From NCBI GenBank assembly GCA_964498075.1, contig CAZCGA010000013.1, positions 8,665 to 72,664 on the forward strand: a DNA stretch of 64,000 bases, in the 5' to 3' direction. Every line of letters starts with the position of its first letter. The stretch's first letter is position 1. This document shows positions 25,411 to 62,306 of the stretch, piece by piece. Position numbers and translations under genes: made by a program. This DNA comes from an uncultured Candidatus Binatia bacterium. GTDB taxonomy: Bacteria > Desulfobacterota > Binatia > HRBIN30. The notes beneath the pieces were generated by a model. That model had not been told where the DNA came from, searched no databases, and worked only from the letters and a program-made list of their open reading frames with translations.

Positions 25411-25614
25411 CTACGTTCGACCCACCACTTCCTGATACGAGAACTCCTGCAGGCGCGCGTTCGTGCGCGCATGCTCAATGGTCATGCTCACGAGGTTCCC
25501 TTGGCGGTCGAGATCGACGTAGATGTTCTCGCTGATCTCCTTGGTTTCAGCGACCTCGTTGTCGGTGAACTCCATGAGGGCAGTGTCCGTGTCCGGGAAG
25601 TACTTGACTCTCAT
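25411..25614 (-). CDS. DUF2283-family small protein (putative antitoxin partner)
   Basis: 'MRVKYFPDTDTALMEFTDNEVAETKEISENIYVDLDRQGNLVSMTIEHA' matches the DUF2283 pattern. The ATGA overlaps the upstream gene. Confidence 0.7.
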   Translation of the reverse strand: MRVKYFPDTDTALMEFTDNEVAETKEISENIYVDLDRQGNLVSMTIEHARTNARLQEFSYQEVVGRT

Positions 25615-25874
25615 CTCTTGCTCTCCTTGAACGACCTGTCGAAGAACGCATTGTGCACTGTCTGGCCATCCTCCAACAGAATGACCCGCAGGAACTTTCC
25701 CGTCTCGGCGATTCGTGCCCACTTGCGTATACGTCCGTCCGACTGGACCTCGGTCTTCTCTGTGTGATCCGGCACGTGGCTGATCCATTCATCGCGGATC
25801 GTAGCGCGGTCCGGCCGCTTGCGCACGTGCTCAAAGTACTGCGTCGTCTTCACCACCATTCTCACGTCCGGCAC
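25611..25874 (-). CDS. DUF4258-like small protein (putative toxin partner)
   Basis: 87 aa; '...GKFLRVILLEDGQTVHNAFFDR'. Translationally coupled to the DUF2283 gene. Confidence 0.5.
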   Translation of the reverse strand: MPDVRMVVKTTQYFEHVRKRPDRATIRDEWISHVPDHTEKTEVQSDGRIRKWARIAETGKFLRVILLEDGQTVHNAFFDRSFKESKR

Positions 25875-26059: not shown

Positions 26060-26704
26060 ATGAACTTCTACACACAGCAACACCGACACTACTGCGGAAT
26101 CGATTTGCATGCACGCGCCATGTACGTGTGCATCCTCGATTCCGCAGGCACCGTGCTGGTGCACCGCGACCTGAGCACGACACCCGACGCCTTCCTGCAG
26201 GTGGTGGCGCCCTACCGCGCGGACCTCGTGGTCGCCGTCGAGTGCATGTTCACGTGGTACTGGCTGGCGGATCTGTGCGCGCGCGAAGGGATCGCCTTCG
26301 TGCTCGGGCACGCGCTCTACATGAAAGCGATCCACGGTGGCAAGGCGAAGAACGATCGGATCGACGCCCACAAGGCCGCGGTGCTGCTGCGCGGGAGCAT
26401 GCTGCCGCAGGCGTACGTGTACCCGGCGGCGCTGCGCGCCACCCGCGACCTGCTGCGCCGACGCTGCCACCTCACGCGCAAGCGCGCCGAGCTGCTGGCC
26501 CACATCCAGAACACCACCAGCCAGTACAATCTGCCCGCGCTGGGGAAAAAGATCGCCTACAAGGCCAATCGCGCCGGCGTCGCCGAACGCTTTGCAGATC
26601 CCAGCGTCCGCACGAGCATCGCGCTGGACCTGGCCCTGATCGACCACTACGACACGCTGCTGACCGCGGTCGAGCTCACCATCATCCGCGCCTACTGTCG
26701 ATGA
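26060..26704 (+). mobile_element. IS110-family transposase gene, 3'-truncated (N-terminal DEDD domain only)
   Basis: The ATG at 26060 follows the RBS 'ggagagaggagg'. 'YCGIDLHARAMYVCILDSAGTVL', 'VAVECMFTWYWLADL' and 'KNDRIDA' are present. The ORF stops after ~214 aa with no Transposase_20/HhH C-terminal domain in any frame downstream. Confidence 0.7.
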
Positions 26705-29513: not shown

Positions 29514-31451
29514 ATGCCTCCGGTACGTTCCAGCCCATTCGGCTCGTGGAAGTCGCCGATCACCGCCGACCTGATCGTCTCGGCCACAATCGGTCTCGGG
29601 CAGATCGCGCTCGACGGCGACGATGTGTACTGGATCGAGACGCGGCCGCAGGAAGGTGGACGGAACGTCGTCGTGCGGTGCACCTCGGACGGACAGCGCA
29701 GCGATGTGACGCCCGCACCGCTGAGCGCACGCACTCGGGTGCACGAGTACGGCGGCGGTGACTTTGTCGTCAGCGACGGGTCGGTCTACTTTTCGAACTT
29801 CGCCGATCAACGCCTGTATCGCCAATCCTTCGGAGCACCGCCGCAACCGATCACCCCGGAGTCGAGCTGCCGCTACGCCGACGCCGTCGTCGACGCGCGT
29901 CGAAGGCGCCTCATCTGCGTGCGGGAAGATCACACGAGCGGCGCGCATGAGCCGACCAACACGCTGGTCGGCGTCGACCTGCAAGACGGTCGCGGCTGCA
30001 ACGTACTGGTCTCCGGACACGACTTCTACGCAGCGCCGCGTTTCAGCCCGGACGGGTCGCGGCTCGCGTGGCTTGCATGGAACCACCCGAACATGCCGTG
30101 GGACGGAACGGAGCTCTGGGTCGCCGAGCTGAATGCCGACGGCTCGCTCAGTCGGACGCAATGCGTCGCCGGCGGCGTGGCGGAATCGATCTTCCAGCCG
30201 GAGTGGTCGCCCGACGGCGTGCTGCACTTCGTCTCGGACCGCACGGGTTGGTGGAATCTCTACAGCTGGCGCGATGGAGGTGTCGAAGCGCTCTGCGAGA
30301 TGACGGCGGAGTTTGGGCGCGCCCAGTGGGTGTTCGGCATGTCGGCGTACGGCTTCGAGTCGGCGCACGTCATCATCTGCTCGTACACACAGAATGGGAG
30401 GTGGTTCCTGGCGCGGCTCGATACTGCGACCCGGAAGCTCGAGCGGATCGACACCCCGTTCTCGGAGATCGCCCAGCTGCGCGTGGCCGCGGGTGGTGCG
30501 GTGATGCACGCCGGCTCGCCCTCTGAGCCGCCGGCCATCGTGCGCTTGGACCTCGCGACCCGTCGGATCACCACACTGCGGCGCCCCAGCGAGACGCCGC
30601 TCGATCCGGGATACATCTCGACTCCCGAACCGATCGAGTTCCCCACCGAGCACGGGCGTACGGCGCACGCGTTCCTCTATCCGCCCTGCAATCACGATTG
30701 CACGGGTGCGGCAGGGACGCTGCCGCCACTGCTGGTCAAAGGCCACGGTGGGCCGACCGCAGCAGCGTCGAGCGTCCTCGATCTGAAGACGCAGTATTGG
30801 ACCAGCCGAGGGTTTGCCGTGGTCGACGTGAACTATGGCGGCAGCACCGGATATGGACGAGCCTATCGCCGCCGTCTCGACGGGCAGTGGGGTGTCGTCG
30901 ACGTCGACGATTGCGTCAACGCGGCGCGCTACCTGGTGGAGCGGGGTCGCGTCGATGCGAGTCGCTTGGCGATCAGTGGGCGCAGCGCCGGCGGCTACAC
31001 GACATTGTGCTGCCTCACCTTCCGGACCGCGTTCAAGGCCGGCGCCAGCTACTACGGCATCGGCGATCTCGAAGCGTTGGCCCGCGACACCCACAAGTTC
31101 GAAGCGCATTACACGGACCGGCTCATTGGACCCTATCCGGAGCGCCGTGATCTGTATCGGGAGCGTTCGCCGATCCACTTCACCGAGCGGCTGTCGTGCC
31201 CGGTCATCTTCTTCCAGGGATTGGACGACAGCGTCGTTCCGCCGAGCCAGGCCGAAGCGATGGTCGCGGCCCTGCGCGCCAAGCAGCTGCCGGTTGCGTA
31301 CGTGAGGTTTCCCGGCGAGCAGCACGGCTTCCGGCGCGCCGAGAACATCAAGCGCGCACTCGAAGCCGAGCTCTACTTCTACTCCCGCGTCTTCGGTTTC
31401 CTGCTCGCAGACCCCGTAGAGCCAGTGGCGATCGAGAACATCGGCGGCTGA
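29514..31451 (+). CDS. S9 family serine peptidase (prolyl oligopeptidase/acylaminoacyl-peptidase-like)
   Basis: N-terminal beta-propeller ('[13 protein letters not shown]', '[13 protein letters not shown]'). Catalytic '[12 protein letters not shown]', 'QGLDDSVVP' and 'GEQHGF'. Confidence 0.9.
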
Positions 31452-31560
31452 TGGGGCCTCCTCCCTAGCCCTCCTCCGCTCACGGAGATGTTCGTAGAGG
31501 AGGGGACCACATCGCGTTGGCGGGGTTGAGCCGGCGGGACGACTGGCGTGGAACGAGCGG

Positions 31561-31596
31561 CTCACCAGTGGTGGATTACATACTGTGGCGGCGCGG
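31561..31596. repeat. Left copy of 36-bp perfect direct repeat (island boundary)
   Basis: 'ctcaccagtggtggattacatactgtggcggcgcgg' is identical to 39813-39848. On the minus strand it encodes '...APPQYVIHHW*', the C-terminus of the DinB-family gene. Confidence 0.9.
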
Positions 31597-31646
31597 CGTC
31601 CCCCTTGCACCTGTCTGCCGGATCGTGACAATGCAATGCTGACTTG

Positions 31647-34600
31647 ATGCAGCCGCATGTAAATCCAAGCCTGCCACCGCCGTTCCACGAGCTCGGCGAG
31701 TATCCGTTCCAAGAGTTGTGTTGCGACCTCTTTGCGGAAGAAGAATCGGTCGCGAGCTGCGAAATATTCGGCACTCGGGGACAGATGCAGCGAGGAATTG
31801 ATTTGTTCGCTCCTCGGCGCGACGGCGACGGAAGCGAGGTGGCGCAATGCAAATGTTATCGAGGCCTTTCAGTTTCAAGAATCCCTGCGGCTTCTGACAA
31901 GTTCTTCGAGCACCTGGAATATTGGCGAGCTTGCAAAGTGAAACGGTTCGTCCTGATCGCGGCTTGCCCACTCGACCGAACCGAACACCATGAAGCGATC
32001 CAGGATCAGAAGGCGCGATTCGCTCAGCATGGAATTGCGTATGAGGCGTGGTCGGCGAGGACGCTGCGCCAGAAACTGGCGCCACACCGTGCGATTGCAG
32101 AGCGGTACATTTCATCTCGAGATCTGGTCAACAGCATTTGCGGCCGGAGTGCGGGAGACGTTGTCGAGCTGCCGTCAGGGGGCGCGCACCTTGCCCGTGC
32201 GCTGGACGCGGCCGGGTCGCAGATCGCGCAGCTTTCGTCGGCGCTTTCCCGAGAGAAGTCTGCACGGCTCGAAGAGGCGCGAACACTGATCAGACGCGGC
32301 CAGAGAAGCAGCGCGTACGCCTTGGTCCGCGCGATCCGCGACGATCCAACTTGGAGCACCCTAGAGAAGCCTCTCCAAGCGAGAGTCCTTCGCGTCCTCG
32401 CCGGCTGTGTTCTCGATGTTGATGGCGATGCAGCAAGAGTGCAGACGCTAGCCGACGAGGCGCAAGCCCTAGACCCTACGGCAGACGACTCCGTCATACG
32501 CGCGGCAATCCGGTATCACGAGAACGGTCCAAGAGCAGCACTCGCCGGCCTTCCCTCGGCCGACAACATCGACACGTTGAACTACCGGCTCGGGCTCTTG
32601 CTCGAACTCGGAGAGACCGAGCAGTTCCTGGCAATCCTGGCTAACGGACCCGACACGATCGAGGTGAACGCCGAAACGCTCCGCATACAAGCGCTGGCGT
32701 CGGTCACCACGAGAGATCTTGCCGGAGCTCGAAGGCTTGTCGACCGGGCACTGGCTCAGGAACCGGAATGGGAAAGCGTGCGAGTGGCTGCGGGCGTTGT
32801 CGAGTACTACTCGGCTTTGTCCGCGGCCGCCTTACCCGAGCAGCTCCCTCCCGTTCCCGGCCCCGTTCCGTGGGAATTCATTAAGCGGGATGACGAAAGC
32901 CGCGAGTATCTCCGAAGCGCAGAGAATCGGTTCCATCTCCTGTCAACAAGCCCTGAGCGCCCGCCGGAGTGGCGCCGCGTATTCTCCCTCTGGAGATTCG
33001 CCTGCTTGGCGAACGATCCGAATAGACAACCCGAAGCATCGGAACTCTGTCGCTCTCTTCTATCCGACGAACCTGGCGATCCGAGGGTTCTCATGTGGGC
33101 CTTGGCCCGCGGGTACGATGTCGATATTGCCGCGAGCCGGACGTTCGTCGAGGCGAGCTTGTCTGAGGCACCCGATGCGCCTGATGCTGCTTCACTTCTC
33201 GTGGCAATGTGCCTTTCGCAGGGTAAATCGGCTGAGGCGCTGGAGCTTCTGGACCGCACGAAGGACGTTTTCGTGCAGGCCGGGCTCCTGGAGCGATGGC
33301 TATTCTGGCGGGTTCAGGTGTTGTCGGCGCGTGGCGCTGTAGCGGAGGCGTTGCAGGTCGCGGATTCTTGCAAAGATGCGGCCGCTCGTCGCCAACTCCG
33401 CCAGCTCGCTCTGCAGGGAAAGTTCGAGCAGGACGGCCAATGGCAGGAGCTGTTGCAGCATCTCGAGTCTTCATTTGAAGAGACTGGCGACCCACGTCTG
33501 CTGTACGACGCTTGCAACCTCAAGGCTCGTCTTGAGGACTGGCCATATGTTGCGGATCGAGCGAACAGATTGCTCGAGTTGATCGGGACGCCGGCTGCCG
33601 TCCACCTCGCAGCTGGTAGTCTCTGGAACGCAAAGCGGTTCACGGCGTGCTTGAAGCTGCTAGACAACGGATCGCGAGTCTTCCCCGGCGGTTCCCTCCC
33701 GCGAGAGCTTCGCCGCCTCCGAATCTACTGCATGCAAGAGGTCGGGCTCGTTTCCAAGGCGGTCGTTGAGGCTGAGCACCTGAGTCATGAGGAACAGAAT
33801 ACTGACAATCTGCTCGCATTGATCCAGTCGCTAGTTCTCACCGGAGACCTCAAGCGAGTTGCGGTGTCGGCCCGGTCTCTATCGGCTCAAGATGACGTTC
33901 CAGCGCGGGATCTGTTACGCGTGGGGCGGCTGCTGGTGTCGGAGGATGTCAACCTGGGTCGCCAGCTCTGGCGCCGAGCCGTTCAGCTCGATCTCTCGGA
34001 CCCGACCACACTCACCGCGGCCGTCGATCTCGCCTATCGGCTCGGGCTCGAGGAAGAGGTGCGTCCCCTGCTGGAACGGATGCACGCGCTTGCGGCCGAG
34101 GGTTCTCCCGCCGTACGGAGAGTGGGGTTCGCCGAATTGATCTCGATGTCGCGCGCTTGGGCGGAGCAGCTGCCCGCAGTTGAAACCACATACCGATCAG
34201 GCCAGGTCCCCGTCCACGTTCTCGCCCAATTGCTGAAAGTGCCGCTCGTGAATCTAATTCCAGGAACCGGTAGGCGGAATCGAATTAGTCCCGATCCACG
34301 GCACCAATTACCTATGCTGATTCGCCACGGAAACCGGGGTGCGGGAGAGACATCCATCCTGGGAGATAACACGCGTCGGCTGCACATCGACATTACGGGC
34401 ATGCTGGCCGCGCACGACCTCGGAATACTTGACGCCGTCGAGCGCTGCTTCAAGGCTCTATGGATTTCACCCTCGGCCATGCCCGCCTTGGTCGTCCAGC
34501 TGGCCACCTTGGTTCCCCAGCAGCCCGTGCATCTTTCCGGTCAAAAGCATGTTCTCGAGCTGCTGGAGCGTCAAGGACTCTGCGCGACAGAGGCTCCTAC

Positions 34601-37600
34601 TGCGCCGCCTCGCGGAGATCCCCATCTCGTCCGCCGAATGGGAATCGAATGGATCGGCGTGCTGGAGAGAGCGGCGGCGCAAAACGGCTACCTCGTAGAG
34701 CACCTTCCGCTGACCAGCAACGACGACACGCGTTCCCTCGTCACGCTGAGCGAACGCGATGCCGCACGCATAGTCAACTGCCGAACTCTGGTCGACGCTC
34801 TCCGGCGCGATGGCGTTCTGTCGTCCGACGCACACAGCAAGGCCATCGACCGACTCGGCAACGAGGGCATTCAACGTTCCGATACAGTGCCCCCGGAGCG
34901 GGGATCGATTGTATATCTGGTCGCAAGTACGGCGGGCGTTTTGGCCGATTCGAATCTCCTGGACCTGATCTGTGATCACTTCGAGGTCTACGTAGACCGA
35001 CGATACGTGGAACAAATCCGTTCCGAGCTCGCCGGTGTCGATGCGGCGGGAGTCCTACGCGGTTGGCTCCAAACCCTGGTCGACAGAGTTCGAAACGGAT
35101 TGATGAGCGGCGTCTACCAAACCACGCAGGTCGATGACGAAGCACCAAAGCTACAAGCGGCGGAGAGGGGGGGCGTCAGCCTCGACGTTCGAGCACTGGG
35201 TGACCTCCTTGCATTCGCAGTTCAATCGGGTGACGCCATCTGGGTTGACGATCGCTATGTTACCTCGTTCTCGAATCGCGACGGAGCGCCCGTCGTGGGG
35301 ATACTGGAGGTGCTTCAAGAACTCCGTTCGCGCTGCGCGATTGACGAGCCTCAGTACTACGAGAAGCTGCTGCAACTCCGCGCGTCCAACGCGCGATACG
35401 TCGCTCTGACGCCTGAGGAGCTCCTCTACTACCTCAAGGACGCTCCAATCACCGAGGGTCGCCTGGTCGAGACCAACGCGCTGTCCACGCTGCGCCGGTA
35501 TGTTGCCGCCTGTCTTCTTGATCGCGCCCCCTTGCAACGTGGACCCGCACCGCAAGGCCGGGCCTCGCCATATGGCGAACTCAATTTCGTGTTCCAGACA
35601 TTGACCGCAGTGACCCTGACGCTCTGTCGCTGCTTCGGAGAAGCTCCATCCATCGAGAGCGCTCAAGCGTGGGCCGATTGGCTGTTGTACAACGTGTATA
35701 CCGGTACCTTCGGCGTGCGGGAGCTACTGGTTGCTGACATCAGTGGCGACGGCCTTGACTTCATCGGCCGGGACCTCGCAGTTGCAATCTGGGGTATGCT
35801 GACCGTCTTGGCTGACTCCGGCGCAGGCGCGACCGATGAGACGCGAAGTCGCTACATGCACTGGATCGAGGAACGCATTCTCCGCAGACGTTTCAAGGCG
35901 GACCCGGCCGTGATTCTGCCGACGTACCTCGCGTTGAAGGCAGTCGTGATCGACAAATTGAACGCCTACCCCGAGAGTACGCCTGAGGGCGCAGTCTACC
36001 GAATCGCGTTGCAGCGGATGTTCTTGGAAGCCCCGCCGGCGGTTCGAGACGAAGTCAAACGCGATCCCGAGCTGTTTCCTCGCATCGGGCTGGCCGTCAC
36101 TTGGACGATTCAGGTCGGACCCGTAACCTTTAGCGCGCCGGAGTTCTTTCGTGCAGCGGCGGATGCGATCAATGGGCGCGAAGCCGTGGTGTGTGCCCAG
36201 GGCGCGACATCGTCATTCACGGTGAGGAAGGCTTCCAGGCAAGGGGACGAGCGCCTCGCCATCGAAGTAGTCGAGCAACAAGGAAGCACGCAGTTGCGCG
36301 CATCCGACCCCATATTCCGCCTCTTGCAAGACTCGCCTGCCGAACGAGAGGCGGTGCTCCGCGAGAACCGAAACTGGTTCGATTGTGAGGCATCGCGGTG
36401 CGAAGCCGCGATCAATGAGATCATGAGCACGGCCGATCCGGCATTACGCATCGAACGGTTAGAGAGACGGCGGGCTTCTTCGGCGGCGTGCTACTACGAG
36501 CGCATCGCTGAGGAACTTGAGCATTCAAGAAGCTTCGACATCAACGACCTCTTGCCGCCGTCGGCCAGTGATCTGCTCAGCCACTTTAGGCTCGATATTT
36601 CAGAAGCAGGCAACGACCGGAGTTTCAAGGCGATGTTGTCCGAGGCTTCTGAGCAGTTGATCGCGGAGGAGGGGATCAAGGAAGCTCTCGGTCGTGTAGC
36701 ATCCTTCCCCGTTCCCACTCCAGCCCCACTTCTGCGGGAGCTAAAGAACCTGACAAGTTCCGCGCGCAACCAGATTATCGAGGCGCTGGAGAGGCAATGT
36801 CATTCACCTATAGGGCTCTTGCACGTGATTGAGCTCGCGGTGCCACTTTTGAGTGATGACGAGATACCACGCCAAATCGCGATTCGCGCCATGGATGCGC
36901 TATTCGACGAGCCCGCGGCCACAAGAGAATTCGAATTGTTTCACGCAATCCTAGAGAGGGTACACACGGAGCTGTCGAGCTGGGTGGACGTCAGCACGTG
37001 GCCGGCCTCGGTCAAGCTTGCCGTTGCTTGGGCCCACAGCCACAAGCTGCACGCCATATTCTCCAGCACCCTCGCGGATGCAGACAAGCTCGCGGAATGG
37101 ATCGAACAGGCAGGATCGCAGATGGGCAGCGAATCGCTGGGCCGACAACCGGAAACGTGGAACGACGCACTCCATCCCAGATTGCTTCGCCGAGAGGACA
37201 TTCTTACGCACGGTCTTGCGTCGGTGTTGCAGGGCAGCAGCGCAGAAACAATCGAGTCGCTGCGGATTCCGGAGCGAATCCGCTCAATCATTTTCGGCGG
37301 CCCGCTTGGGGCTCAGTTGCCGGGCGGGCCGCTATTGAGAGATCCAGCGTTGACGAGAAATTGCGCCGGCTCGATCTTCGGCGGTGACCGGGCCACTGTG
37401 TTGCGTGCGGTCGTCGGTGCCGAAGTGTCGGAGTCGGTCTCGTCTGCGTCTCTTCATGGCGTGGTTAGTCGCGCCCTCGACGTCCTCAAGTATGACGTCG
37501 CTTCTCAATATGCCTGGGTGGTTGTCACCTCCATTGTTTGTGATCTTCCCATCCACGAGGACTTGCGGGAAGAGCTGAGAGCTATCCTCTTCGCGGTGGA

Positions 37601-38033
37601 TCTAGAGGCACTGTGGTCGCGAGATGCGTTCTCGGGCTATCTCGCTATCCGTTTCGCTGCAGGGCAGGTAGCGCACATCGACGACTGTGCACTTCGCGCC
37701 AGCGTGGAAGAGGCTCTCGTCAAGATCGCGCACCATCTCGATGGGCTCGGGAAACGGCAGAATCAACTCAGCGCCCCTGTGAGCATCGAGGACCACGCCA
37801 TCAACCTGATTGACGCGGCATTGCGTATTGCCCACTACCCTGGCGAGGAACAGAAGACGAGCACCCGGTCGGCGCAACTGCTCATCAAGCTTCTCAATGC
37901 CTCATCCGCCGTCTCGGAATCAGTGAGGAGTACCGCGCCCCGACTCGTTTGGGAACTCCCCGCCAGACAGCTCCACGGGATGTGGCAAGTAGAGCTGGAG
38001 TTGCGGGCAAGGGCGGGTGGACAGGCCGTCTAG
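31647..38033 (+). CDS. Giant 2,128-aa multidomain protein: N-terminal Mrr-like PD-(D/E)xK nuclease signature, TPR-like repeats, PIN-like central region, long helical C-terminus
   Basis: Uninterrupted 6.4-kb ORF; I prefer the ATG at 31647 over the TTG at 31644. 'PFQELCCDLF...GIDLFAPRRDGDGSEVAQCKCY' gives an E...D...QxK pattern. Helical hairpin repeats span roughly aa 200-820. 'RRLHIDITGMLAA' and 'GDAIWVDDRY' are PIN-like acidic strands. There is no GxxxxGK[ST]. Confidence 0.7.
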   Translation: MQPHVNPSLPPPFHELGEYPFQELCCDLFAEEESVASCEIFGTRGQMQRGIDLFAPRRDGDGSEVAQCKCYRGLSVSRIPAASDKFFEHLEYWRACKVKRFVLIAACPLDRTEHHEAIQDQKARFAQHGIAYEAWSARTLRQKLAPHRAIAERYISSRDLVNSICGRSAGDVVELPSGGAHLARALDAAGSQIAQLSSALSREKSARLEEARTLIRRGQRSSAYALVRAIRDDPTWSTLEKPLQARVLRVLAGCVLDVDGDAARVQTLADEAQALDPTADDSVIRAAIRYHENGPRAALAGLPSADNIDTLNYRLGLLLELGETEQFLAILANGPDTIEVNAETLRIQALASVTTRDLAGARRLVDRALAQEPEWESVRVAAGVVEYYSALSAAALPEQLPPVPGPVPWEFIKRDDESREYLRSAENRFHLLSTSPERPPEWRRVFSLWRFACLANDPNRQPEASELCRSLLSDEPGDPRVLMWALARGYDVDIAASRTFVEASLSEAPDAPDAASLLVAMCLSQGKSAEALELLDRTKDVFVQAGLLERWLFWRVQVLSARGAVAEALQVADSCKDAAARRQLRQLALQGKFEQDGQWQELLQHLESSFEETGDPRLLYDACNLKARLEDWPYVADRANRLLELIGTPAAVHLAAGSLWNAKRFTACLKLLDNGSRVFPGGSLPRELRRLRIYCMQEVGLVSKAVVEAEHLSHEEQNTDNLLALIQSLVLTGDLKRVAVSARSLSAQDDVPARDLLRVGRLLVSEDVNLGRQLWRRAVQLDLSDPTTLTAAVDLAYRLGLEEEVRPLLERMHALAAEGSPAVRRVGFAELISMSRAWAEQLPAVETTYRSGQVPVHVLAQLLKVPLVNLIPGTGRRNRISPDPRHQLPMLIRHGNRGAGETSILGDNTRRLHIDITGMLAAHDLGILDAVERCFKALWISPSAMPALVVQLATLVPQQPVHLSGQKHVLELLERQGLCATEAPTAPPRGDPHLVRRMGIEWIGVLERAAAQNGYLVEHLPLTSNDDTRSLVTLSERDAARIVNCRTLVDALRRDGVLSSDAHSKAIDRLGNEGIQRSDTVPPERGSIVYLVASTAGVLADSNLLDLICDHFEVYVDRRYVEQIRSELAGVDAAGVLRGWLQTLVDRVRNGLMSGVYQTTQVDDEAPKLQAAERGGVSLDVRALGDLLAFAVQSGDAIWVDDRYVTSFSNRDGAPVVGILEVLQELRSRCAIDEPQYYEKLLQLRASNARYVALTPEELLYYLKDAPITEGRLVETNALSTLRRYVAACLLDRAPLQRGPAPQGRASPYGELNFVFQTLTAVTLTLCRCFGEAPSIESAQAWADWLLYNVYTGTFGVRELLVADISGDGLDFIGRDLAVAIWGMLTVLADSGAGATDETRSRYMHWIEERILRRRFKADPAVILPTYLALKAVVIDKLNAYPESTPEGAVYRIALQRMFLEAPPAVRDEVKRDPELFPRIGLAVTWTIQVGPVTFSAPEFFRAAADAINGREAVVCAQGATSSFTVRKASRQGDERLAIEVVEQQGSTQLRASDPIFRLLQDSPAEREAVLRENRNWFDCEASRCEAAINEIMSTADPALRIERLERRRASSAACYYERIAEELEHSRSFDINDLLPPSASDLLSHFRLDISEAGNDRSFKAMLSEASEQLIAEEGIKEALGRVASFPVPTPAPLLRELKNLTSSARNQIIEALERQCHSPIGLLHVIELAVPLLSDDEIPRQIAIRAMDALFDEPAATREFELFHAILERVHTELSSWVDVSTWPASVKLAVAWAHSHKLHAIFSSTLADADKLAEWIEQAGSQMGSESLGRQPETWNDALHPRLLRREDILTHGLASVLQGSSAETIESLRIPERIRSIIFGGPLGAQLPGGPLLRDPALTRNCAGSIFGGDRATVLRAVVGAEVSESVSSASLHGVVSRALDVLKYDVASQYAWVVVTSIVCDLPIHEDLREELRAILFAVDLEALWSRDAFSGYLAIRFAAGQVAHIDDCALRASVEEALVKIAHHLDGLGKRQNQLSAPVSIEDHAINLIDAALRIAHYPGEEQKTSTRSAQLLIKLLNASSAVSESVRSTAPRLVWELPARQLHGMWQVELELRARAGGQAV

Positions 38034-38392
38034 CGGCCCTCTCGGCGTTGCTATCCATGGCCTCGACAGAGTACTGGATCGGCTACGCAGACTGGCTCGA
38101 CTTCTCCTGTTCGTTGCTGGGCGATCGTCGCGCAGATCGAGAGGCCTGCCCGCACCCCGTGGTTGCGGGTCCTTGAAGCAGACTCGACGCGCCGGGGCGT
38201 TCTCCGCTTCACCACGAGCTTGCGACGCGGGCGCAAGGTCCTGACGGTCAAGTCTGGAAAGTAGAACTTCAAGCGTGAGCATTCGAGCTGTCGGCAGCGT
38301 TGTGGAATGGTGGACTTCCGCTTCATTCGACCGCGTCGACCCGAAGGGTGAGTCGTCAGCTTTCGGCGATCGGCGCCGGATCACACGGCTCG

Positions 38393-38480
38393 ATGCACAT
38401 AGGCTGTCAGCACTCAGCTGTCAGCCATCAGCTCGAAGCGGTTCACGTCCGCAGATGCTCAGAGGATTGCCGGGCGAATT
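38393..38480. repeat. ~85-bp dispersed repeat, copy 1
   Basis: 'atgcacataggctgtcagcactcagctgtcagccatcagctcgaagcggttcacgt...' aligns with 39536-39618. The core of ~55 bp is ~90 % identical apart from a 6-nt indel, and similarity is weaker beyond it. Confidence 0.75.
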
Positions 38481-38635
38481 CCTATGGATGACGGCTGGAC
38501 GCTGAGAACTCACCGCGGTGATGTCACCGTCACCGGGCTGACCCGCACGACCCGCACCCCCACGCTTGCCTTCAATCATGGGCGCCAAATGGAATGCGAC
38601 TTTCGAGGCCTCATCCAGGAGCCGGAAGATCAGCT

Positions 38636-39010
38636 CTAGACATCACGCGCAATCGGCAGCAGCCGAATGCGCACCGCGGCATCTTCGACGGTGACGATGG
38701 CGCCTTGGCGGAGCGAGTCTTCAATGTCCGCCCAGCATTCGCTGAACCTGCGAAACAGCGCCTCGGGGTGGGTATTGCGCACCCGAAAGATGATGACCGA
38801 CGGACCTGCTACGCCGGAGAAGGCGAGCAGATGGCCGTAGTCCAGGTCGTGGGTGACGATGACTTCGCCACCCGCCTTTGCTGCCTTGATGATCTCCGGG
38901 TCCTCGGCTCGCTCCAGCCCGATGTCTTGCGCGTGTCGGCATGGATGCCCAGCCGCCACCAATCGCGGAGCCAACTGGGGCAGCACGTTCATGTTCAGCA
39001 GCAGCTTCAC
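38636..39010 (-). CDS. DUF5615-family PIN-like protein (putative toxin)
   Basis: The GTG start at 39010 overlaps the DUF433 stop (GTGA). '[32 protein letters not shown]...[14 protein letters not shown]...PSVIIFR' is present. Confidence 0.7.
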
Positions 39011-39255
39011 GCCGCGGCCTCTGCGCGTGGCACAATGCGCTCCTCCATGGCCCACGCCGCGTAACCGAGTGCTTCGTAGACATCCTCACGCTCCAACTCG
39101 GGCCACTCGGCCAGGATCTCGTCGATCGTCATACCCGAGCTGAGATAGCTGAGGATCGAAGCCACCGGCATCCGCAGCCCGCGGATACAGGGCTTTCCAA
39201 AGCACTTGTTCGGGTCGAGTGTGATGCGCTGAAACCGATAATGACGGATCTCCAT
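39007..39255 (-). CDS. DUF433-family protein (putative antitoxin)
   Basis: '[57 protein letters not shown]' is the canonical DUF433 pattern. Confidence 0.8.
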
Positions 39256-39289
39256 GAGTCTTCTCCCGGTTGTGTCGCCAGTCTAGCAT

Positions 39290-39541
39290 GGCTGGCCCAC
39301 CGCGCAGCAACGAGCCGAACTTGTCGGTGAGCCTGCCGAAGCGGGCGCCCCAGAACGTCTCGTGGATTGCCATCCTGATCGTGCCGCCTTCACAGGGCTT
39401 GGCCCACACGCGGTTGTGTTTCTCGATGCTGTCGAGCGCTATGATCAACCCAATCGGCGAGCTGGGCGGCGCCGGCGGCTTTCCGAGCATGCCGTCAGAC
39501 GCCATGAACACCACGCCCTCGGCCTCGAACTCGGCATGCAC
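39290..39541 (-). pseudogene. 5'-truncated VOC/PhnB-like (glyoxalase-fold) gene fragment
   Basis: 'HAEFEAEGVVFMASD...EGGTIRMAIHETFWGARFGRLTDKFG' corresponds to the C-terminal two-thirds of PhnB-like proteins. The fragment begins exactly at repeat copy 2. Its 3' end reads through into the DUF433 gene. Confidence 0.45.
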
Positions 39542-39618
39542 ATATGCTGTCAGTACTCAGCTGTCAGCTCGGAGCGGTTCACGTTTCGCACAGGCGCGGA
39601 AGATTGCAGGCGAGATCG
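39536..39618. repeat. ~85-bp dispersed repeat, copy 2
   Basis: 'atgcacatatgctgtcagtactcagctgtcagctcggagcggttcacgt...' is in the same orientation as copy 1. Confidence 0.75.
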
Positions 39619-39812
39619 ACCAATCAACCACCGAGGCACCGAGCACGGAGAACCAGCCGTCCGCCTTCAGCAGTGCCCTTTAGCGGCAGGTCAGCCGGGC
39701 GCCGGTCTTTGAGAGCCCGCACTTCGGGCGGAGCGCGCCGCTCGGGTTGAACGCCAGGCTGCCGCACAGTCCGGCGTCAGTCTGCGCCGCTTCATCCAGC
39801 ACGACGAACACT

Positions 39813-39848
39813 CTCACCAGTGGTGGATTACATACTGTGGCGGCGCGG
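39813..39848. repeat. Right copy of 36-bp perfect direct repeat (island boundary)
   Basis: Identical to 31561-31596. Here it forms the authentic 3' end (last 11 codons plus stop) of the DinB-family CDS. Confidence 0.9.
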
Positions 39849-40386
39849 TCGCCTGGTCGTTGGCCTGAACCCGCTCGGACTGCGGCGGGCCCACCGGCGG
39901 CTTGCCCATCTCGGCGCAGATGCGGCGGATGTACTTGGTGTGCGAGTACTCGTGATTGATCATCCGCCGAAACACCTCCGCCGCTTCCATCGCGGCTTCG
40001 GGACTGCGGATGGCACGGAAACGCAGCCCCGCCAACCCCAGCGTGCGGGTACGCACGGCCTGCGCGTACTCGAGGATCGCCGCGCCTGACGGCAGGCGCG
40101 CGTCGCGGTTGTTGACGTTGTGCACACCGAACCCGTCCTGCAACGCTGGCGTCGCCAGCAGCAGCTGGCTGGCGGCGTTTGCCGCTTCCATGTCCTCGAC
40201 GAGCGCGATGTGGCCGAAATGGTAGCTGATACTGATCCCGTCCGGCCGCGGCGGCAGCCACAGCAGCTCGGCCTGCGACAGCGACTCGATCATGCTGTAC
40301 AAGTGCCCTCGCGCCGCGTGCAGCTCCTGGCAGAGGACGCTATAGGTCGGGGCAGCGGTTGCGTGCCCGGGTGACGTCTCGGCCAT
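39814..40386 (-). CDS. DinB-family (DinB_2-like) metal-dependent protein
   Basis: Start is the ATG at 40386 ('MAETSPGH...'). The His triad context is 'SYHFGHIALVED' and 'INHEYSHTKYI'. Confidence 0.65.
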   Translation of the reverse strand: MAETSPGHATAAPTYSVLCQELHAARGHLYSMIESLSQAELLWLPPRPDGISISYHFGHIALVEDMEAANAASQLLLATPALQDGFGVHNVNNRDARLPSGAAILEYAQAVRTRTLGLAGLRFRAIRSPEAAMEAAEVFRRMINHEYSHTKYIRRICAEMGKPPVGPPQSERVQANDQATAPPQYVIHHW

Positions 40387-40721
40387 TCGGCTACGCTTCC
40401 ACAACGCCGTGGCTCCAGCAAGCCTTCCGCCCCGGCGCTCGCACGATGTGTCAACCGATTCGGTGGCTGGTTCGTTCCACTCGTGAGGAGCGATCCGAAA
40501 TAGAAGCACGAATGCGCCTTCCCCCCCAACCCCCTTCGGACGCATTCTCAACCACGCGCCAGGCCCTGTCGGATGCCGTCGCCCCCCCGATACGTATTCG
40601 ACACCTGGCGCGTGGTCGTCCCGCCGGATCCTTCAGTGGAGGCGCGGCCGCGCCGATCGATCTGTCAACCGCCGCCGGCGCTCGTTCGCGTCCAACACCA
40701 AGCCGCGGAGAAGATCATCGG

Positions 40722-41252
40722 TTGAAAAACGCGACCGACAGTCCCGTGGACTACGACGACTTGTACCGAGCCCACCACGCGCGCGTCCTGCGGCTGTGCC
40801 GGCTCCTGCTCTCGGATCCCCACGAGGCCGACGACGTGAGTCAGGAAGTCTTCTTGAAGCTGCTGCGTCAGCAGCGAACCGTCGGACGGTCGTTTGCCTC
40901 GCACGCATCACCGCCGCGTGTGCTGCCGCGTCCAGTCTTCGGCGCGTCGGTGAGCTGGGCGACTGCGGCCGCGGCGCTCATACTGCTGGTCGGGTTCGCA
41001 TGGGGTGTGGGGTGGTGGGTGAGCGACGAGCCGGTGTCGCTGGCCACACGCACGGCCAACGTCTCGGCGTTCGCGGCGGACGTGTCTGCAGCGCTGTTTG
41101 CGACGAACGACGCGACCGGGCTCTTGCAGCTGGCCTCCGACGCACCAGACTTGCAAGCGGCGCTCGAAGCCGGATGGCCGTGCACGCAGGCGCGTTTCCT
41201 CAACGGAGAGTGTGATGACCAGGTGTCTGCCCTCTTCTTCGAGGGACAGTGA
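40722..41252 (+). pseudogene. ECF sigma-factor region-2 fragment fused to an anti-sigma-like TM/periplasmic segment
   Basis: A possible TTG start at 40722 follows 'ggag'. 'YDDLYRAHHARVLRLCRLLLSDPHEADDVSQEVFLKLLRQ' is sigma70_r2. There are no regions 2.3-4. A TM helix 'WATAAAALILLVGFAWGVGWWV' follows. Confidence 0.35.
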
Positions 41253-41268
41253 ACAAAGGAGTAGTCTC

Positions 41269-41769
41269 ATGAAGCGCTCGAATGCTTTGTTGGTCAGCCT
41301 GATTGCTGCCAGCCTGTGGTCGACGGCGGCTCACGCACAGCCGATGGGCCCGCCGCCAATGATGGGGCGGGGACACATGGGCCACATGGAGCTCGGGGAA
41401 GGCCCCGGCATGATGATGCCCCTGGTGCTCCAGCACGCGAATCTCACACCGGACCAGAGCGATCAGGTCCACAAGATCATGGAAGCGGATCATGAAACGC
41501 TGCGGACGCTGTTCGCGCAGTTGCATGCCGCCAACGATCAGTTCGGCGATAAGCTGTTTGCTCCTGGCAATCTGCAAGCGGCGGATCTGACGCCGCAGAT
41601 CCAACGCATCATGCAGCTGCGGCAGCAGCTCATGGAGCAAGGGATGAAGACGGCGCTGGCCATCCGCGCCGTGCTGACGCCGGAACAATTGGCCAAGGTG
41701 GCGCAGCTCAAGGACCGGATGCAGAAGCTGCAGACCGAGATGCGCAGTATCTTCGAAGCGAAGGACTAG
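41269..41769 (+). CDS. Spy/CpxP-family periplasmic protein (LTXXQ motifs)
   Basis: Signal peptide 'LLVSLIAASLWSTAAHAQP'. It has a Met/Gly/His-rich stretch and two LTXXQ motifs, 'LTPDQ' and 'LTPEQ'. Confidence 0.7.
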   Translation: MKRSNALLVSLIAASLWSTAAHAQPMGPPPMMGRGHMGHMELGEGPGMMMPLVLQHANLTPDQSDQVHKIMEADHETLRTLFAQLHAANDQFGDKLFAPGNLQAADLTPQIQRIMQLRQQLMEQGMKTALAIRAVLTPEQLAKVAQLKDRMQKLQTEMRSIFEAKD

Positions 41770-41821
41770 CGACGCGGCGGCATGATCGCAGGGGGAGCTG
41801 GGGCCGAAAGTCCTGAGTGAA

Positions 41822-44800
41822 CTAGCGGCACGTCAGCACGTTGCCGCCAAAGGAGAACTTGCAGGCTGGCTTCGGACCGCCCGTCGGGTTGAAAGCGCCG
41901 ATCGCGCATGGTCGCTGACCGCACTGCGCTCCCAGGATTGCTGAGACGCGCACCGGCGCCTCGCCGGCCGCGACCTGGAAATCGTTGCCCTTGCCGCGCA
42001 CGCTGATTGTGAATCGCCCCGGCGTCTTTGCGGTCTTGTCCCAAATCACCACGCGGCGGATGCCGCCGGCGAGCGTGCCGGCGCTATCGCCGAACGTCCA
42101 CCGGGTATGGGCCCTATTGACCACCCAGCCCGGAGCCTTGAGGCCCGGGCGCGCACCGGGCGGTACGGTGCGCGTGAAGAGCGGTACGCCGTTGCTGTCT
42201 TCCACCGTGAAGCTGAAGCCTTCGGTCACCGGATCGATCGGGGTCTTCGCCACACCCACCTTCACCTCGCCGGACAGCGACAGCGTCTCATCCCCGGAGG
42301 GGTCCAGATCCTTGCCGATACGTATCCGCTGTTTGCCCATCGGCACGCTCAGCGCATCGGCAGGATCAGTGCCCAGATCGACCTCATCGGTATCGAAGGT
42401 GCCATCTTCATCTCGATCCAAGGCCGCCCGCCGGCCGGATCCCGGCGGTACGCAGGTGTACGTCAGCTCTTGCCCGGGCGTGTTGGCGAGGGCGCGCAGG
42501 GAAGCGTCAGTCAGAAACAACTCGGAGGCACGATCGCTCTGGAAGTCCCCCAAGGCGAAGAGCTTCGTCCAGCCGCGCTGCTCACCGGCGACCGTGCCCT
42601 TGACGACGACCTCGCATTCAACCTTCGCGGCGCGGGCAAGCAGGAGATCGATGCGCGGACCCGCGACGGCGGCGTTGGTGCTGGTCAGCGTCACCTGCTG
42701 GCCGACGATCGGCGCCAGGTTGCTGTCGAACGCGAGCATGAACTCATCGACCTGACGGCGTTGGGGATCGCCGCCGGGGAATTGGAAGACTCCCCCATTG
42801 TGGAAGGTGAGCAGTGTGTCCACCGCACCGTCGTGGAGAAAGCCAAAGCCGCGCACTTGATCGCCCATGAAAGGGCCGCCGCCGGAGAAGCCGAACATGC
42901 CGACCTTCTGGTAGAGGTTGCGCAGGTGCGGAATCTTGAGGTGTTGAGGCTCTCCCTCGAAGGTGGAGAAGCCATCGCCGCCGAAGAAGCCCGCCGCGGG
43001 GTCCAGACGGTGACATCCGTTACAGTTGAAAACGGTGTCCGATATCGGTCCGAAAAAGAAGTCGTGCCCCGCTTGCTGGTCGGGTGTGAGCGAGTTGTCC
43101 AACGGACGCACCGGATTCGGCGGGTAGGTGACCTGCAGAATGAAATCCGTGAACGCTTGCATCTCTGGGTCCGTCAGCGGCCCGCTCCGTCCAAGCAGGC
43201 CGGCGAACGCGACGTTGAACTTCTTGAAGGCGGCGTTCTCATCGAGCGGGTTGCCGCCGGTATCGTTGCCGCCGGTGCGGTCGCCGCGCCAGTGCATCGG
43301 TCCGTGATTGGCCATCCCACGCAAGCTCTGCGTGGTCATCGGCCCCTTCATGGGATGGAAGTCCGGATTGCCGAACGGGCCGAGGCGAAATGGATTCGGA
43401 TTGTTCAACACGACGTCGTCGGGATTCCCTAGGTCCCAGGCCAGGCTGTCGAAGTCGCCGAAGATGTGGCAGCTGGCGCAGGCGGTCTCGCCGTTGCTCG
43501 AGGTCAAGAACGCGTCGTATAGAAAGCGCCGCCCATTGACGACGCTGGCGGGCTCGGGGTTATGCAAAGACACGTGCGCCTGCTCGCTACGACTCACGGT
43601 ATCGACCACCGAGACGGAGTTGTCGAAGCGGGTCATGACGTAGAGGCGGCTGCGGGCTTCGTCGAGAGCCAGTCCGCTCGGGCCGCCACCGCTGACGAGG
43701 ATGTGGTCTGCGGCGTTGGGTACGAACGAATCGGCTTCGAGCGCCGCTGTGCTGAAGACACCGACCTTACTCGAGCCGAAGGCCGCGACGTAGAGCGTCG
43801 CCCCGTCGTTGCTCACGGCCATGCCGAGCGGCGTTGCCAGGCTGTCGTCCTTCACACCGGCCGGGCTTGGGACAACGCTGTAGTTGATGTGCTTGTTCAG
43901 GTGCCGCGGCAGCACGCTGCTGCCGTCGAGGACAGTGATCCGTGCTTCATGCAGGTGACCACGCACCGTGCTGCCGCCGAAGATGCCGGGCCCTTCGAAG
44001 CGCACCTCGTTGCGCGCCTCGCCGTTGGTGACGTAAACCCTGCCGCTCACCGGGTTCGCCGCCATGTTGAAAATGATCGTCCCCACGCCGCTGAAGGAGC
44101 TCGCTTCCACCGGCGGGTTGGCGGTGGCGTCGATGGCAAAGACGTCTTTGTCCGGCAGCGAGAAGTGCACCGCATTGCTCCAGTTGCGGCCCAGCTCGTC
44201 CTCCCAATGACTGCTCCCGGGGTTGAACTTCACGATCAGCCCGGTCTCGGGGTGCGGGATGCCTTGCACGTTCACGTCGGGTCCCGGCGACCCGCCCGGC
44301 ATCGTTTGGCCACCGACGACGCACGGTCCGGCGCTCGCACCACCGTCGCAGACCGCGCCTTCAAAGACGGCCGTCGTTTGGTTGCCTGAGTGGAAGACGG
44401 CGGCGTAGACGGTGTTGCCGTCCGGGCTGACGGTCAGTGCCCGCGGCGTGTCGCCGAACAGGGTGACGATGCTGAGCGGCGTGCCGCCGAGCGAGGCGCC
44501 GAGGCTGAGGGCATCGAACACCCACACGTCGGCGCGGTCCACGCCGGGTGTCATCAGCTGCGGGTCGCCGGGACGGTTTTGTCCGCGATGCGCCGTCGTA
44601 ATGAAGGCGCGGTTGCCGCCCGGACCGGCGAAGACGATGTCACGCGGCTCGTCGCCGACGAGCAGGGTGCGGACGACACGCGGCGGTGTCGCCGCCACGT
44701 TCACGATGCTGACGCTGTCCGAGAGGTGATTGACGACCCAGACCTCGCCGTTCGTCCGCGCGGCGATGGCAACCGGCTCGAGACCAACCGCTACGGACCC

Positions 44801-45073
44801 GCTGTGCGTGATGCCGCCCGCGCCGACGGCGAATATCTCCAGCCGGTTGTCCGGAGTATTGACGGCGAACAGGCGGGTGCCGTCGGGCGACATGGTCAGC
44901 GGACGGACCTGGCCGCTTTCGAACGTGACGAACGAGCCCGCATGCGCTGGTCCGGCACCGACGAGCCCGCACGACAGCAACAGTAGGCCCGTGGCTCTTC
45001 TGAGTGCCGGACAACGCCCGCGTAATCGCATCATGCTCCTCCTGAACCCACGAAAATGTCGATGTATGTTCAT
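41822..45073 (-). CDS. Secreted 1,083-aa fusion: YVTN-type beta-propeller + di-haem cytochrome c peroxidase (CCP/MauG)-like module + TSP3-like/Cys-rich C-terminal region
   Basis: Signal '[18 protein letters not shown]'. Propeller blades include '[16 protein letters not shown]', '[12 protein letters not shown]' and '[15 protein letters not shown]'. Haem motifs are CASCH (nt ~43466-43480) and CNGCH (~43010-43024), with 'IPHLRNL...[10 protein letters not shown]'. '[21 protein letters not shown]' is also present. Confidence 0.75.
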
Positions 45074-57185: not shown

Positions 57186-58135
57186 GCGAGACTCAAGACG
57201 CGCTCCATGAAGTGCGTGCGAAAGCGTGTCGCGTCGACCGCCGTCGCGCAGCGCATGCGCCGCGTCGCCGGGCTCGCTCGATCACGCTCGAGCGTCCGGA
57301 ACACGCCATCCACGATAGCCGGCTCGATGTCGAGGTCCTCGAAGGTGCAGAACGACTCGTCGTACGCGCAAGCGAACGCCAGCGGATCGTGCAAGAAGGC
57401 GACGTTGTCGTCGTCGATCGAGGCGCCGTTGCCACCGAAGATTCGGCGCATGATCGGCGTCCAGGCGCGCACCGCGCGCGCCAGGGCTTGATGCAGCGGG
57501 GCGCGACTCGCCTCCAGTTGCGCCACGTCCGCTTGCGTTAGCCACACCTGCAGCGTGACGTCAGCGGTCACCAACCGCGTCGGGATGCCAGCCCGCAGCA
57601 CGGCGACCGACGCCTCCGGATCCGAGCACAAGTTGTAATCGACGCCCGGCGGGAACACGTGGCCGCCGTACGCAACGCGACGAATGTGGCCACCCATGAT
57701 CGTCAGACGCGCGATGCGCGGCGCGGCATCGGGGTGGCGGGCCAGCAGCATCGCGATGTTGGTCAGCGGTCCGACAGCGACGACCTCGAGCCCAGAATGG
57801 TCGTGCAAGAGCCGCGCGAGGGCATCGACCGCGGGCTCGGCGCTGATGTCGAGCGGCACGTCCGGATCCAGAATGCCCTTGCCTTCGTTGCCGAACCAGA
57901 CAAAGCGGTCCTCTCCGGCCACCGGGCCCTGGCACCCTGCGTACACCGCAATGTCTGCTCGGCCCGCCAGGTCGAGCAGCCGTCGCGAGATGCGGGCACG
58001 CAGCTGTGTGTCGCGGGTCACATGCGTGAGCGCCACGAGCTCGACGTCCGGCGCGGCCAGCGCCAAGGCCAAGCACAGCGAGTCATCGACGTCCGAGCCC
58101 ATGTCGGTATCGAGAATGATGATTCGACGGTTCAT
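57182..58135 (-). CDS. Nucleoside hydrolase (IUNH family)
   Basis: The N-terminal 'IILDTDMGSDVDDSLCLALAL' is the DxDxxxDD Ca/ribose-binding motif. Start and stop overlap both neighbouring genes. Confidence 0.85.
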   Translation of the reverse strand: MNRRIIILDTDMGSDVDDSLCLALALAAPDVELVALTHVTRDTQLRARISRRLLDLAGRADIAVYAGCQGPVAGEDRFVWFGNEGKGILDPDVPLDISAEPAVDALARLLHDHSGLEVVAVGPLTNIAMLLARHPDAAPRIARLTIMGGHIRRVAYGGHVFPPGVDYNLCSDPEASVAVLRAGIPTRLVTADVTLQVWLTQADVAQLEASRAPLHQALARAVRAWTPIMRRIFGGNGASIDDDNVAFLHDPLAFACAYDESFCTFEDLDIEPAIVDGVFRTLERDRASPATRRMRCATAVDATRFRTHFMERVLSLA

Positions 58136-59181: not shown

Positions 59182-59236
59182 GTCGTCGTTGGTTGTGGCC
59201 GAGTCATCTCGCCGATGCAAGCCGGCGCGTGGCACG

Positions 59237-60443: not shown

Positions 60444-60516
60444 GTCCGGAGTGAGGTTCTTGCCGAGTCGCCGCGCGGATGCAAGCGGGTGAGAGGCGCT
60501 GCACGCGCCGAGTCGC

Positions 60517-62286: not shown

Positions 62287-62306
62287 CTCCGCGCTCGACC
62301 GCAGCG

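Follow-up and report, generated by a model that had tools for sequence, protein, structure and literature searches.

This report concerns an insertion-like segment of DNA, here called the islet, in a stretch of 64 kb (the window, meaning the whole of the DNA analysed) that belongs to a 76.6-kb NCBI contig; the host is an uncultivated, probably Binatia-like bacterium. On its left the islet borders on an S9 prolyl-oligopeptidase-family gene and on its right on a DinB_2 gene, and at both ends it carries the same 36-nt sequence, CTCACCAGTGGTGGATTACATACTGTGGCGGCGCGG. Between the two copies lie a giant gene encoding a protein of 2128 aa, a pair of DUF433/DUF5615 genes and a fragment of a VOC/PhnB-like gene. 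A prediction made from the DNA letters alone (the original prediction) had described the interior in the same way, as one giant open reading frame (ORF), a toxin-antitoxin (TA) pair and gene fragments, and had taken the repeats for the scar of a site-specific integration event.

The repeat pair and the composition of the islet

The window contains exactly two copies of the 36-mer, also when up to three mismatches are allowed, with a distance of 8252 nt from start to start, and 100 dinucleotide-preserving shuffles yielded no match (expected 0). Read on the minus strand, its right copy consists of 2 nt of a preceding codon, the last 10 codons (APPQYVIHHW), the stop codon and 1 further nt of the DinB_2 gene, which is intact. 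This tail, in the form A-P-P-Q-Y-x-I-x-H-W, is conserved in an alignment of 14 DinB homologues, and the right 36-mer is thus native to the DinB gene and did not come with the insert. The left copy, located 109 nt 3' of the S9 stop codon, is an orphan, and the ATG of the giant ORF (31647) follows it at a distance of 50 nt. One 36-mer together with 8,216 bp makes up the islet unit of 8,252 bp (31597-39848). The original prediction was right about the perfect direct repeat, the orphan tail behind the S9 gene and the position of the giant ORF some 50 bp from the left repeat. It correctly assigned the right copy to the 3' end of a DinB gene but counted 11 codons where 10 are covered in full, and the roughly 5 nt of additional similarity that it saw on allowing a 1-nt indel did not hold up, as similarity beyond the 36 nt is not above chance on either side and identity stops abruptly. 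An independently assembled metagenome contig of 25 kb from the Joint Genome Institute (JGI; contig L001) has the same structure and differs by five single-nucleotide polymorphisms (SNPs) over 13.4 kb. Since the arrangement of repeat and insert is thus present in two separate assemblies, it is unlikely to be an assembly artefact.

In composition the interior departs from its flanks in the sliding GC and tetranucleotide analyses that the original prediction had proposed. Its GC content is 0.611 as compared to 0.657±0.006 in 158 other 8.2-kb sliding windows (minimum 0.648), the lowest-GC 8.2-kb interval of the whole 64 kb begins at 31501, and the interior differs from the remainder of the window by a tetranucleotide distance of 0.253, as opposed to 0.116±0.011. 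The interior is hence richer in A/T, as predicted, but the 50-55 % GC estimated from individual lines overstated the difference. The GC content at third codon positions (GC3) is 0.68 in the giant gene versus 0.78-0.87 in the flanking host genes, with 0.87 in the DinB and 0.82 in the S9 gene. Moreover, the Markov log-odds score changes sign at the left repeat, between 31.2 and 31.6 kb (-14 before, +24/+32 after), and takes intermediate to host-like values from 38.0 to 39.8 kb. Composition thus establishes that the giant gene is foreign and that the left boundary is sharp and coincides with the repeat. That the right-hand part of the interior is foreign as well follows not from its composition but from its 90% identity to DNA in another genomic context, as described below.

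Table 1. Coordinates in the window of the islet, its parts and the adjoining genes.
Feature	Position	Strand	Remarks
S9 prolyl-oligopeptidase-family gene, left chromosomal flank	29514..31451	+	same strand as the giant gene
Left direct repeat (attL-like), orphan copy of the last 10 DinB codons and stop	31561..31596	-	
Giant gene, 2128 aa	31647..38033	+	GC3 0.68; resembles conflict-system proteins of the TPR-GreAB-C-PIN (TGP) class
TA cassette, segment shared with contigs L104-L108	38311..39472	-	1165 nt; 90% nt identity
Inner repeat, left copy, 81 nt	38393..38473		GCTGAnn heptamers, imperfect hairpin
DUF5615 (PIN_10-like) putative toxin gene	38636..39010	-	PF18480, E 9e-22
DUF433 putative antitoxin gene	39007..39255	-	PF04255, E 3e-25; 4-nt overlap with toxin gene
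VOC/PhnB-like gene fragment, 5'-truncated	39280..39541	-	PF06983, positions 47-110 of 116
Inner repeat, right copy, 75 nt	39536..39610		one heptamer fewer; abuts the truncated VOC gene
Unassigned DNA, ~200 nt, inner repeat to right 36-mer	39611..39812		integrase expected here; no protein-family match
Right direct repeat (attR-like), native 3' end of the DinB_2 gene	39813..39848	-	
DinB_2 gene, intact and native, target gene	39814..40386	-	PF12867, E 8e-9; GC3 0.87

The giant gene and the toxin-antitoxin cassette

The giant protein has a single significant Pfam match, to HTH_upst_double_PIN (PF24407, E 7e-16). A piecewise scan adds matches that are below threshold yet consistent in their order, namely Mrr_cat_2 at the N-terminus, accompanied by a GIDL...QCK motif typical of PD-(D/E)xK enzymes, followed by TPR families, PIN-TPR-GreABC (E 0.031) and Permuted_GreAB-C (E 0.17). 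The protein would accordingly be composed of an N-terminal PD-(D/E)xK/Mrr-like nuclease, TPR repeats, the HTH_upst_double_PIN module, PIN-like domains and a C-terminal region of about 900 aa that carries no annotation. AlphaFold models of two of its segments are confident (pLDDT, the predicted local distance difference test score, of 85.5 for aa 820-1650 and 89.8 for aa 905-1250). The invariant aspartates of the PIN-like domains are D96 and D383 in the numbering of the segment 820-1650. With both models Foldseek found no significant match in the PDB and nothing recombinase-like, the weak matches being to the PIN protein PAE2754, and searches of PADLOC, PHROGs, the PDB sequences and viral collections gave no informative match.

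A large-database search retrieved 34 relatives, all of them at most 36% identical and 1240-2316 aa in length (mostly ~2000-2300 aa), and the family is rare and patchy in its distribution. The N-termini of these relatives vary, some of them being DUF4365 and some caspase domains; matches to TPR, PIN-TPR-GreABC and Permuted_GreAB-C are recorded for three homologues (P0010, P0015 and P0018), and precomputed matches to PF20698 or PF24388 for some relatives. Part of the family is plasmid-borne in cyanobacteria, as in the case of a gene that adjoins parAB on the conjugative plasmid pMIC7113.01, and other members occur singly amid housekeeping genes. One of the latter, homologue P0014 (L102:8001-15691), is located between ligA and spoIID, and immediately downstream of it come the BrnT-family toxin gene of a TA pair and a small adjacent ORF; this locus has neither an integrase nor flanking repeats, and it shows the same combination of giant gene and TA genes as the window.

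The features of the giant protein and its relatives are reminiscent of the TGP class, whose members join a variable N-terminal effector to a rapidly evolving TPR-GreA/B-C-PIN core and are mostly encoded by standalone genes (Kaur et al. 2021, PMC8195603). A member of this class, Agp/Bab of E. coli ECOR25, defends against phage T5 (bioRxiv 10.1101/2024.11.07.622273). Like these, the giant gene stands alone and its product combines a variable N-terminal effector, REase-like here and caspase or DUF4365 in homologues, with putative TPR and PIN-type domains, and its homologues have matches to the Pfam families PIN-TPR-GreABC and Permuted_GreAB-C. Different from the typical TGP protein however, it measures 2128 rather than ~1100 aa, contains the helix-turn-helix and 'double PIN' module of PF24407 and ends in the long unannotated C-terminus, its own GreAB-C and PIN matches stay below threshold, and PADLOC does not recognise it. 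We thus predict from domain content that the giant protein is related to the TGP class and is a single-gene conflict or defence protein. A function in defence would follow by analogy, and under the TGP model the protein would sense infection and act via its nuclease domains.

How the giant gene is transcribed need not involve the islet junction. The original prediction held that its promoter must lie in or at the junction. The S9 gene, however, has the same orientation as the giant gene and ends 195 nt upstream of it, with no terminator-like site between the two, which makes a junction promoter dispensable, and read-through from the S9 gene is possible. The sequence TTGCAC-N16-GACAAT at 31605-31632 is a weak promoter-like match below the scan threshold.

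The second module of the islet consists of the adjacent and overlapping DUF433 and DUF5615 genes, which by their families and arrangement form a putative type II TA pair. The 90%-identity cluster of the antitoxin has 54 members, some of them labelled Latescibacterota and Chloroflexota (metagenome-assembled genomes), and the exact antitoxin protein is also encoded on seven other contigs (L104-L110). On these contigs the cassette has other neighbours than in the window, being set between a gene for a PhdYeFM antitoxin and one of the beta-lactamase family. Here as there it is bordered by copies of a repeat that measures ~75-110 nt and includes GCTGAnn heptamers, and in both settings it is accompanied by the VOC fragment, which on the other contigs is eroded to differing extents. 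The 90% nucleotide identity in an unrelated context argues that the TA cassette is a separately mobile module of the islet, and together with the broken VOC gene it may constitute a small repeat-flanked mobile cassette. It may also serve to stabilise the islet. The two inner-repeat copies in the window have diverged (83-94% identity, with an indel) and fold weakly (z-scores -2.1 and -0.7). They are not integron attC sites, for they lack the RYYYAAC and GTTRRRY boundary motifs. Between the cassette of the window (38311-39610) and that of L104 (5714-6943) the position at which the inner repeat abuts the VOC fragment differs, and on L109 and L110 the toxin gene is mostly deleted.

Origin of the islet

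How, then, did the islet come to lie at the end of the DinB gene? The repeat ends 1 nt past a stop codon, the gene is intact, the interior is foreign and an orphan tail is left at the far end, which together is the geometry of a Campbell-type integration. The explanation we favour, and to which we give about an even chance of being correct, is that the islet is a horizontally acquired mosaic that lacks an integrase and occupies the 3' end of the native DinB_2 gene, an att-flanked element either decayed or mobilised in trans. As its recombinase is missing, the closest category is that of the cis-mobilizable elements (CIMEs). According to this model, a site-specific recombinase, presumably of the tyrosine type, would have joined a circular element with 36 bp identical to the DinB end (10 codons plus stop) to that gene end in a Campbell-type att x att recombination. 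The event would have kept DinB intact at attR and left the orphan tail at attL beside the S9 gene. The recombinase would either have been lost by decay, leaving a CIME-like remnant, or act in trans from elsewhere in the genome. We thus infer the mechanism of recombination, the acquisition in a single step and the loss or trans-supply of the recombinase.

The closest approach to an unoccupied locus is provided by contig L082, the only syntenic relative (~55-85% aa identity over the matched segments). Its gene order is QueT, ABC, CbiQ, S9(+), beta-propeller(-), DinB(+), Fer4(-), Rrf2(-), so that the beta-propeller gene directly follows the S9 gene and neither giant nor TA genes are present. In the window QueT, ABC and CbiQ are followed by an extra stretch of 4.3 kb, S9(+) and the islet, and to the right of the islet by DinB(-), ECF sigma(+), LTXXQ(+), beta-propeller(-), SDR(+), Fer4(-) and Rrf2(-). 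The original prediction had proposed a search for an empty site, in which S9 and DinB adjoin with a single 36-mer; what was found is a relative that lacks the islet but is not a clean empty site, since its DinB gene is displaced and inverted. The integration scar itself, as originally proposed, is borne out in so far as the giant gene is foreign, the cargo is known from the mobile gene pool, L082 lacks the islet and DinB is intact; it is not borne out by a true empty site or by a compositional boundary on the right.

Several observations weigh against integration by a site-specific recombinase, among them those that concern the enzyme. No recombinase was matched by the islet ORFs in Pfam, NCBIfam or PHROGs and no transposase is present inside, neither tyrosine nor serine recombinases were detected with Pfam among the likely genes of the whole window, and the ~200 nt beside attR, the usual place of an integrase, yielded no integrase or fragment of one. 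The repeats are also poor in the features of attachment sites, with no arm-type repeats or inverted core sites other than a 5-1-5 palindrome that is forced by the coding sequence, and the abrupt end of identity would fit a de novo duplication too. The right 1.8 kb of the interior are host-like, which leaves the right boundary unfixed by composition. No flanking repeats were found around the loci of giant-gene homologues, and none of the collections searched contained an empty site. Finally, DinB lies across the beta-propeller gene and in opposite orientation in L082 (window 39814-45073 versus L082:5762-10696), and the two closest DinB homologues (74% identity) have a CBS-domain gene at the DinB 3' end; these differences in position and neighbours imply that the surroundings of DinB have undergone rearrangements beyond a simple insertion. 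The absence of an integrase, transposase or tRNA inside or at the edges of the islet had already been noted in the original prediction and agrees with our profile and RNA scans, which found no tRNA and no Rfam family in the interior.

Could the islet have been captured without a recombinase? A single RecA crossover at the 36-bp homology, or template switching or break repair that copied the DinB end once more, would make the repeat a by-product of repair and the islet something that was never a dedicated mobile element. Such a capture would account for identity that ends abruptly on both sides with no degenerate extension, for the missing recombinase and the missing arm-type or inverted binding-site repeats, for an interior in which a giant gene is patched together with a TA cassette of separate mobility and with the remains of a VOC gene, and for giant-gene homologues that sit amid housekeeping genes without repeats or integrases; in addition, the nested direct repeats around the TA cassette suggest that repeat-flanked insertion can take place without a dedicated enzyme. 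We nevertheless consider it unlikely. As is generally understood, 36 bp is the lower limit for a RecA-mediated crossover, a repeat that covers exactly the gene end and preserves the gene is a trait of att sites and would be a coincidence in random repair, and a donor with the same 36 nt would imply earlier residence at the site, which is the att model again. Somewhat different is the case of a local rearrangement, in which the orphan tail would be what duplication, inversion or deletion left of a DinB gene that was either a second copy or had been relocated, and the interior would have accrued piecemeal in a variable region. The inverted and displaced DinB of L082, the poorly conserved DinB neighbourhood among homologues, the host-like right 1.8 kb with an origin other than that of the giant gene and the stretch at 25.2-29.5 kb with its IS110 remnant and TA pair, which is absent from L082 as well, are all in line with this. 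So is contig L095 (1-420), where all that is present of a DinB homologue is its last 50 codons and the sequence from nt 263 on is 97.8% identical to the full-length copy in L087; it marks a second, independent breakpoint inside the DinB family. Then again, a duplicated copy should share the downstream flank, but the identity breaks off 1 nt behind the stop, the composition switches within ~200 nt of the left repeat, and the 36-mer is perfect while the older inner repeat has diverged, which argues for one recent event. On balance we think a rearrangement quite improbable.

It is very improbable that the 36-mer arose as a target-site duplication, through a machinery for transposition or insertion that escaped recognition and is encoded elsewhere or provided by the nuclease domains of the giant protein. 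The repeat is indeed perfect and sharply bounded, the giant protein does combine a PD-(D/E)xK-like motif with HTH and PIN-like domains, and its gene begins close to one end of the islet, at a distance of 50 nt. But 36 nt far exceed the known prokaryotic duplications, which measure ~2-15 nt, the ends lack terminal inverted repeats, the fold searches returned no recombinase-like match and the homologue loci are devoid of flanking duplications. Moreover, the N-terminal domain is exchanged among homologues (DUF4365, caspase), as would be expected of an effector rather than of a conserved transposase. A conventional transposon with target-site duplication can be rejected on the same grounds, there being no inverted repeats and no transposase but a repeat of 36 bp. 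What remains is an assembly error, in which the chromosome and another molecule were threaded together at a 36-mer that they have in common. The sequence does stem from a metagenome-assembled genome, but two separate assemblies that are 5 SNPs apart agree, current assemblers work with final k-mer sizes and read lengths that exceed a repeat of 36 nt, and a separate molecule would still carry the DinB tail and thus be an attP-bearing element; we regard this explanation as barely conceivable.

Two further candidates for the agent of integration were considered and rejected. An IS110-family ORF at 26060-26704 is the sole transposase-like gene among the scanned ORFs of the window. It covers profile positions 1-207 of 343, is 3'-truncated and lacks the catalytic C-terminal part, and it is located 4.9 kb to the left of the islet, with host-like genes in between and no Rfam match. 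Being truncated and outside the islet it is no plausible agent, and the scar is of the wrong kind, for IS110 elements are not known to leave long duplications, their insertions being flanked only by a 2-nt core. An Xer/dif site was dismissed as well, since the 36-mer is no closer to E. coli dif than expected by chance.

The search for related loci extended to several collections. In a species-level genome collection the S9 protein matched at no more than 70% identity in many phyla and with no common neighbours, and at 90% identity the S9, DinB and sigma-factor proteins cluster with nothing outside the two known contigs. DNA encoding APPQYVIHHW and a stop codon had no match in a metagenome scan, a weak negative in that the collection lacks even the known source contig, and the DinB-tail pattern had none in viral collections. 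A metagenome scan with the DinB profile gave 12 short contigs, none of them syntenic. For the 43-aa ORF next to attR no exact database record was found.

Known islands and other features of the window

On the favoured explanation the islet belongs to a known kind of genomic island and calls for no new principle of mobility. In Streptococcus thermophilus, CIMEs occupy the 3' end of fda. The islet shares with elements of this type the direct repeats around foreign DNA, one of which overlaps the 3' end of a protein-coding gene that is intact, and accessory cargo without integrase or transfer genes. CIMEs are decayed remnants of integrative and conjugative or integrative and mobilizable elements (ICEs and IMEs) that retain attL and attR but have lost the genes for integration and transfer (PMC5704250). 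Different from these, the DinB site has neither an autonomous relative of the islet nor a cognate integrase known to use it, the islet shows no tandem accretion, and its host is of an uncultivated Binatia-like lineage. With the islands that tyrosine integrases insert at tRNA, tmRNA or gene 3' ends, such as the ssrA-targeted islands of Dehalococcoides (PMC3146451), the islet has in common a duplicated target 3' end, a restored gene, deviant composition and accessory cargo, but the integrase adjacent to att by which these islands are defined is absent. Similarly, the IMEX elements, which exploit host XerCD at dif, have no recombinase of their own and carry short direct repeats (~28-30 bp), whereas the islet is located at a gene end and not at the site of chromosome dimer resolution, and the similarity of the 36-mer to E. 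coli dif is at chance level.

A more far-reaching idea, which we consider a long shot, is that the 36-mer is the working site of a mobile defence cassette without recombinase. Either an unlinked recombinase would recognise the conserved DinB tail, and the DinB family would then be a new dedicated insertion hotspot in Binatia-like bacteria, or the unusually long duplications of 36 nt would be generated by an insertion mechanism, conceivably involving the nuclease and HTH domains of the giant protein.

If the favoured explanation of a CIME-like islet is true, the locus would be a clean case of single-gene defence and TA modules that entered a chromosome at a gene end and stayed there after the integration machinery was gone, and an example from a poorly known, uncultivated lineage. 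Most worthy of follow-up are the giant gene, which as an intact and very large TGP relative is a candidate for expression and phage-defence work, and the repeat-flanked TA cassette, a side lead to a small unit with flanking repeats of its own that would move between distant genomes.

Several other features of the window deserve mention. The 4.3-kb stretch between CbiQ and S9 (~25.2-29.5 kb), which contains the truncated IS110 gene and a presumed TA pair, is also absent from L082. The pair consists of two small ORFs (25411-25874, minus strand) that by eye resemble DUF4258/DUF2283; one of them was scanned against NCBIfam and gave no relevant match. No Pfam match was obtained for three long ORFs on the minus strand at 58132-63863 (479, 589 and 518 aa; GC3 0.79-0.85) or for the plus-strand ORFs that overlap them. 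The ECF sigma/LTXXQ gene pair between DinB and the beta-propeller gene, which encodes 1083 aa, is found in the window but not in L082. The closest beta-propeller homologues are not syntenic, being located between dnaN and gyrB or in different surroundings; two of them (78% identity; L096:1089-9847 and L097:2485-10874) occupy the former position, in the gene cluster of the replication origin, unlike the copy in the window.

Within the DinB tail (39817-39846), 3 of the 10 codons end in A or T (CCA, TAT and GTA) in a gene with a GC3 of 0.87, and the homologues have G/C-ending codons there; this excess is not significant on its own (hand estimate, P ~0.13). Among the SNPs that distinguish the JGI contig from the window, those in the S9 and DUF5615 genes are silent, and both of those in the giant gene (window 31920 and 37426; L001:3839 and 9345) are nonsynonymous, amounting to 2 aa differences in 2129.

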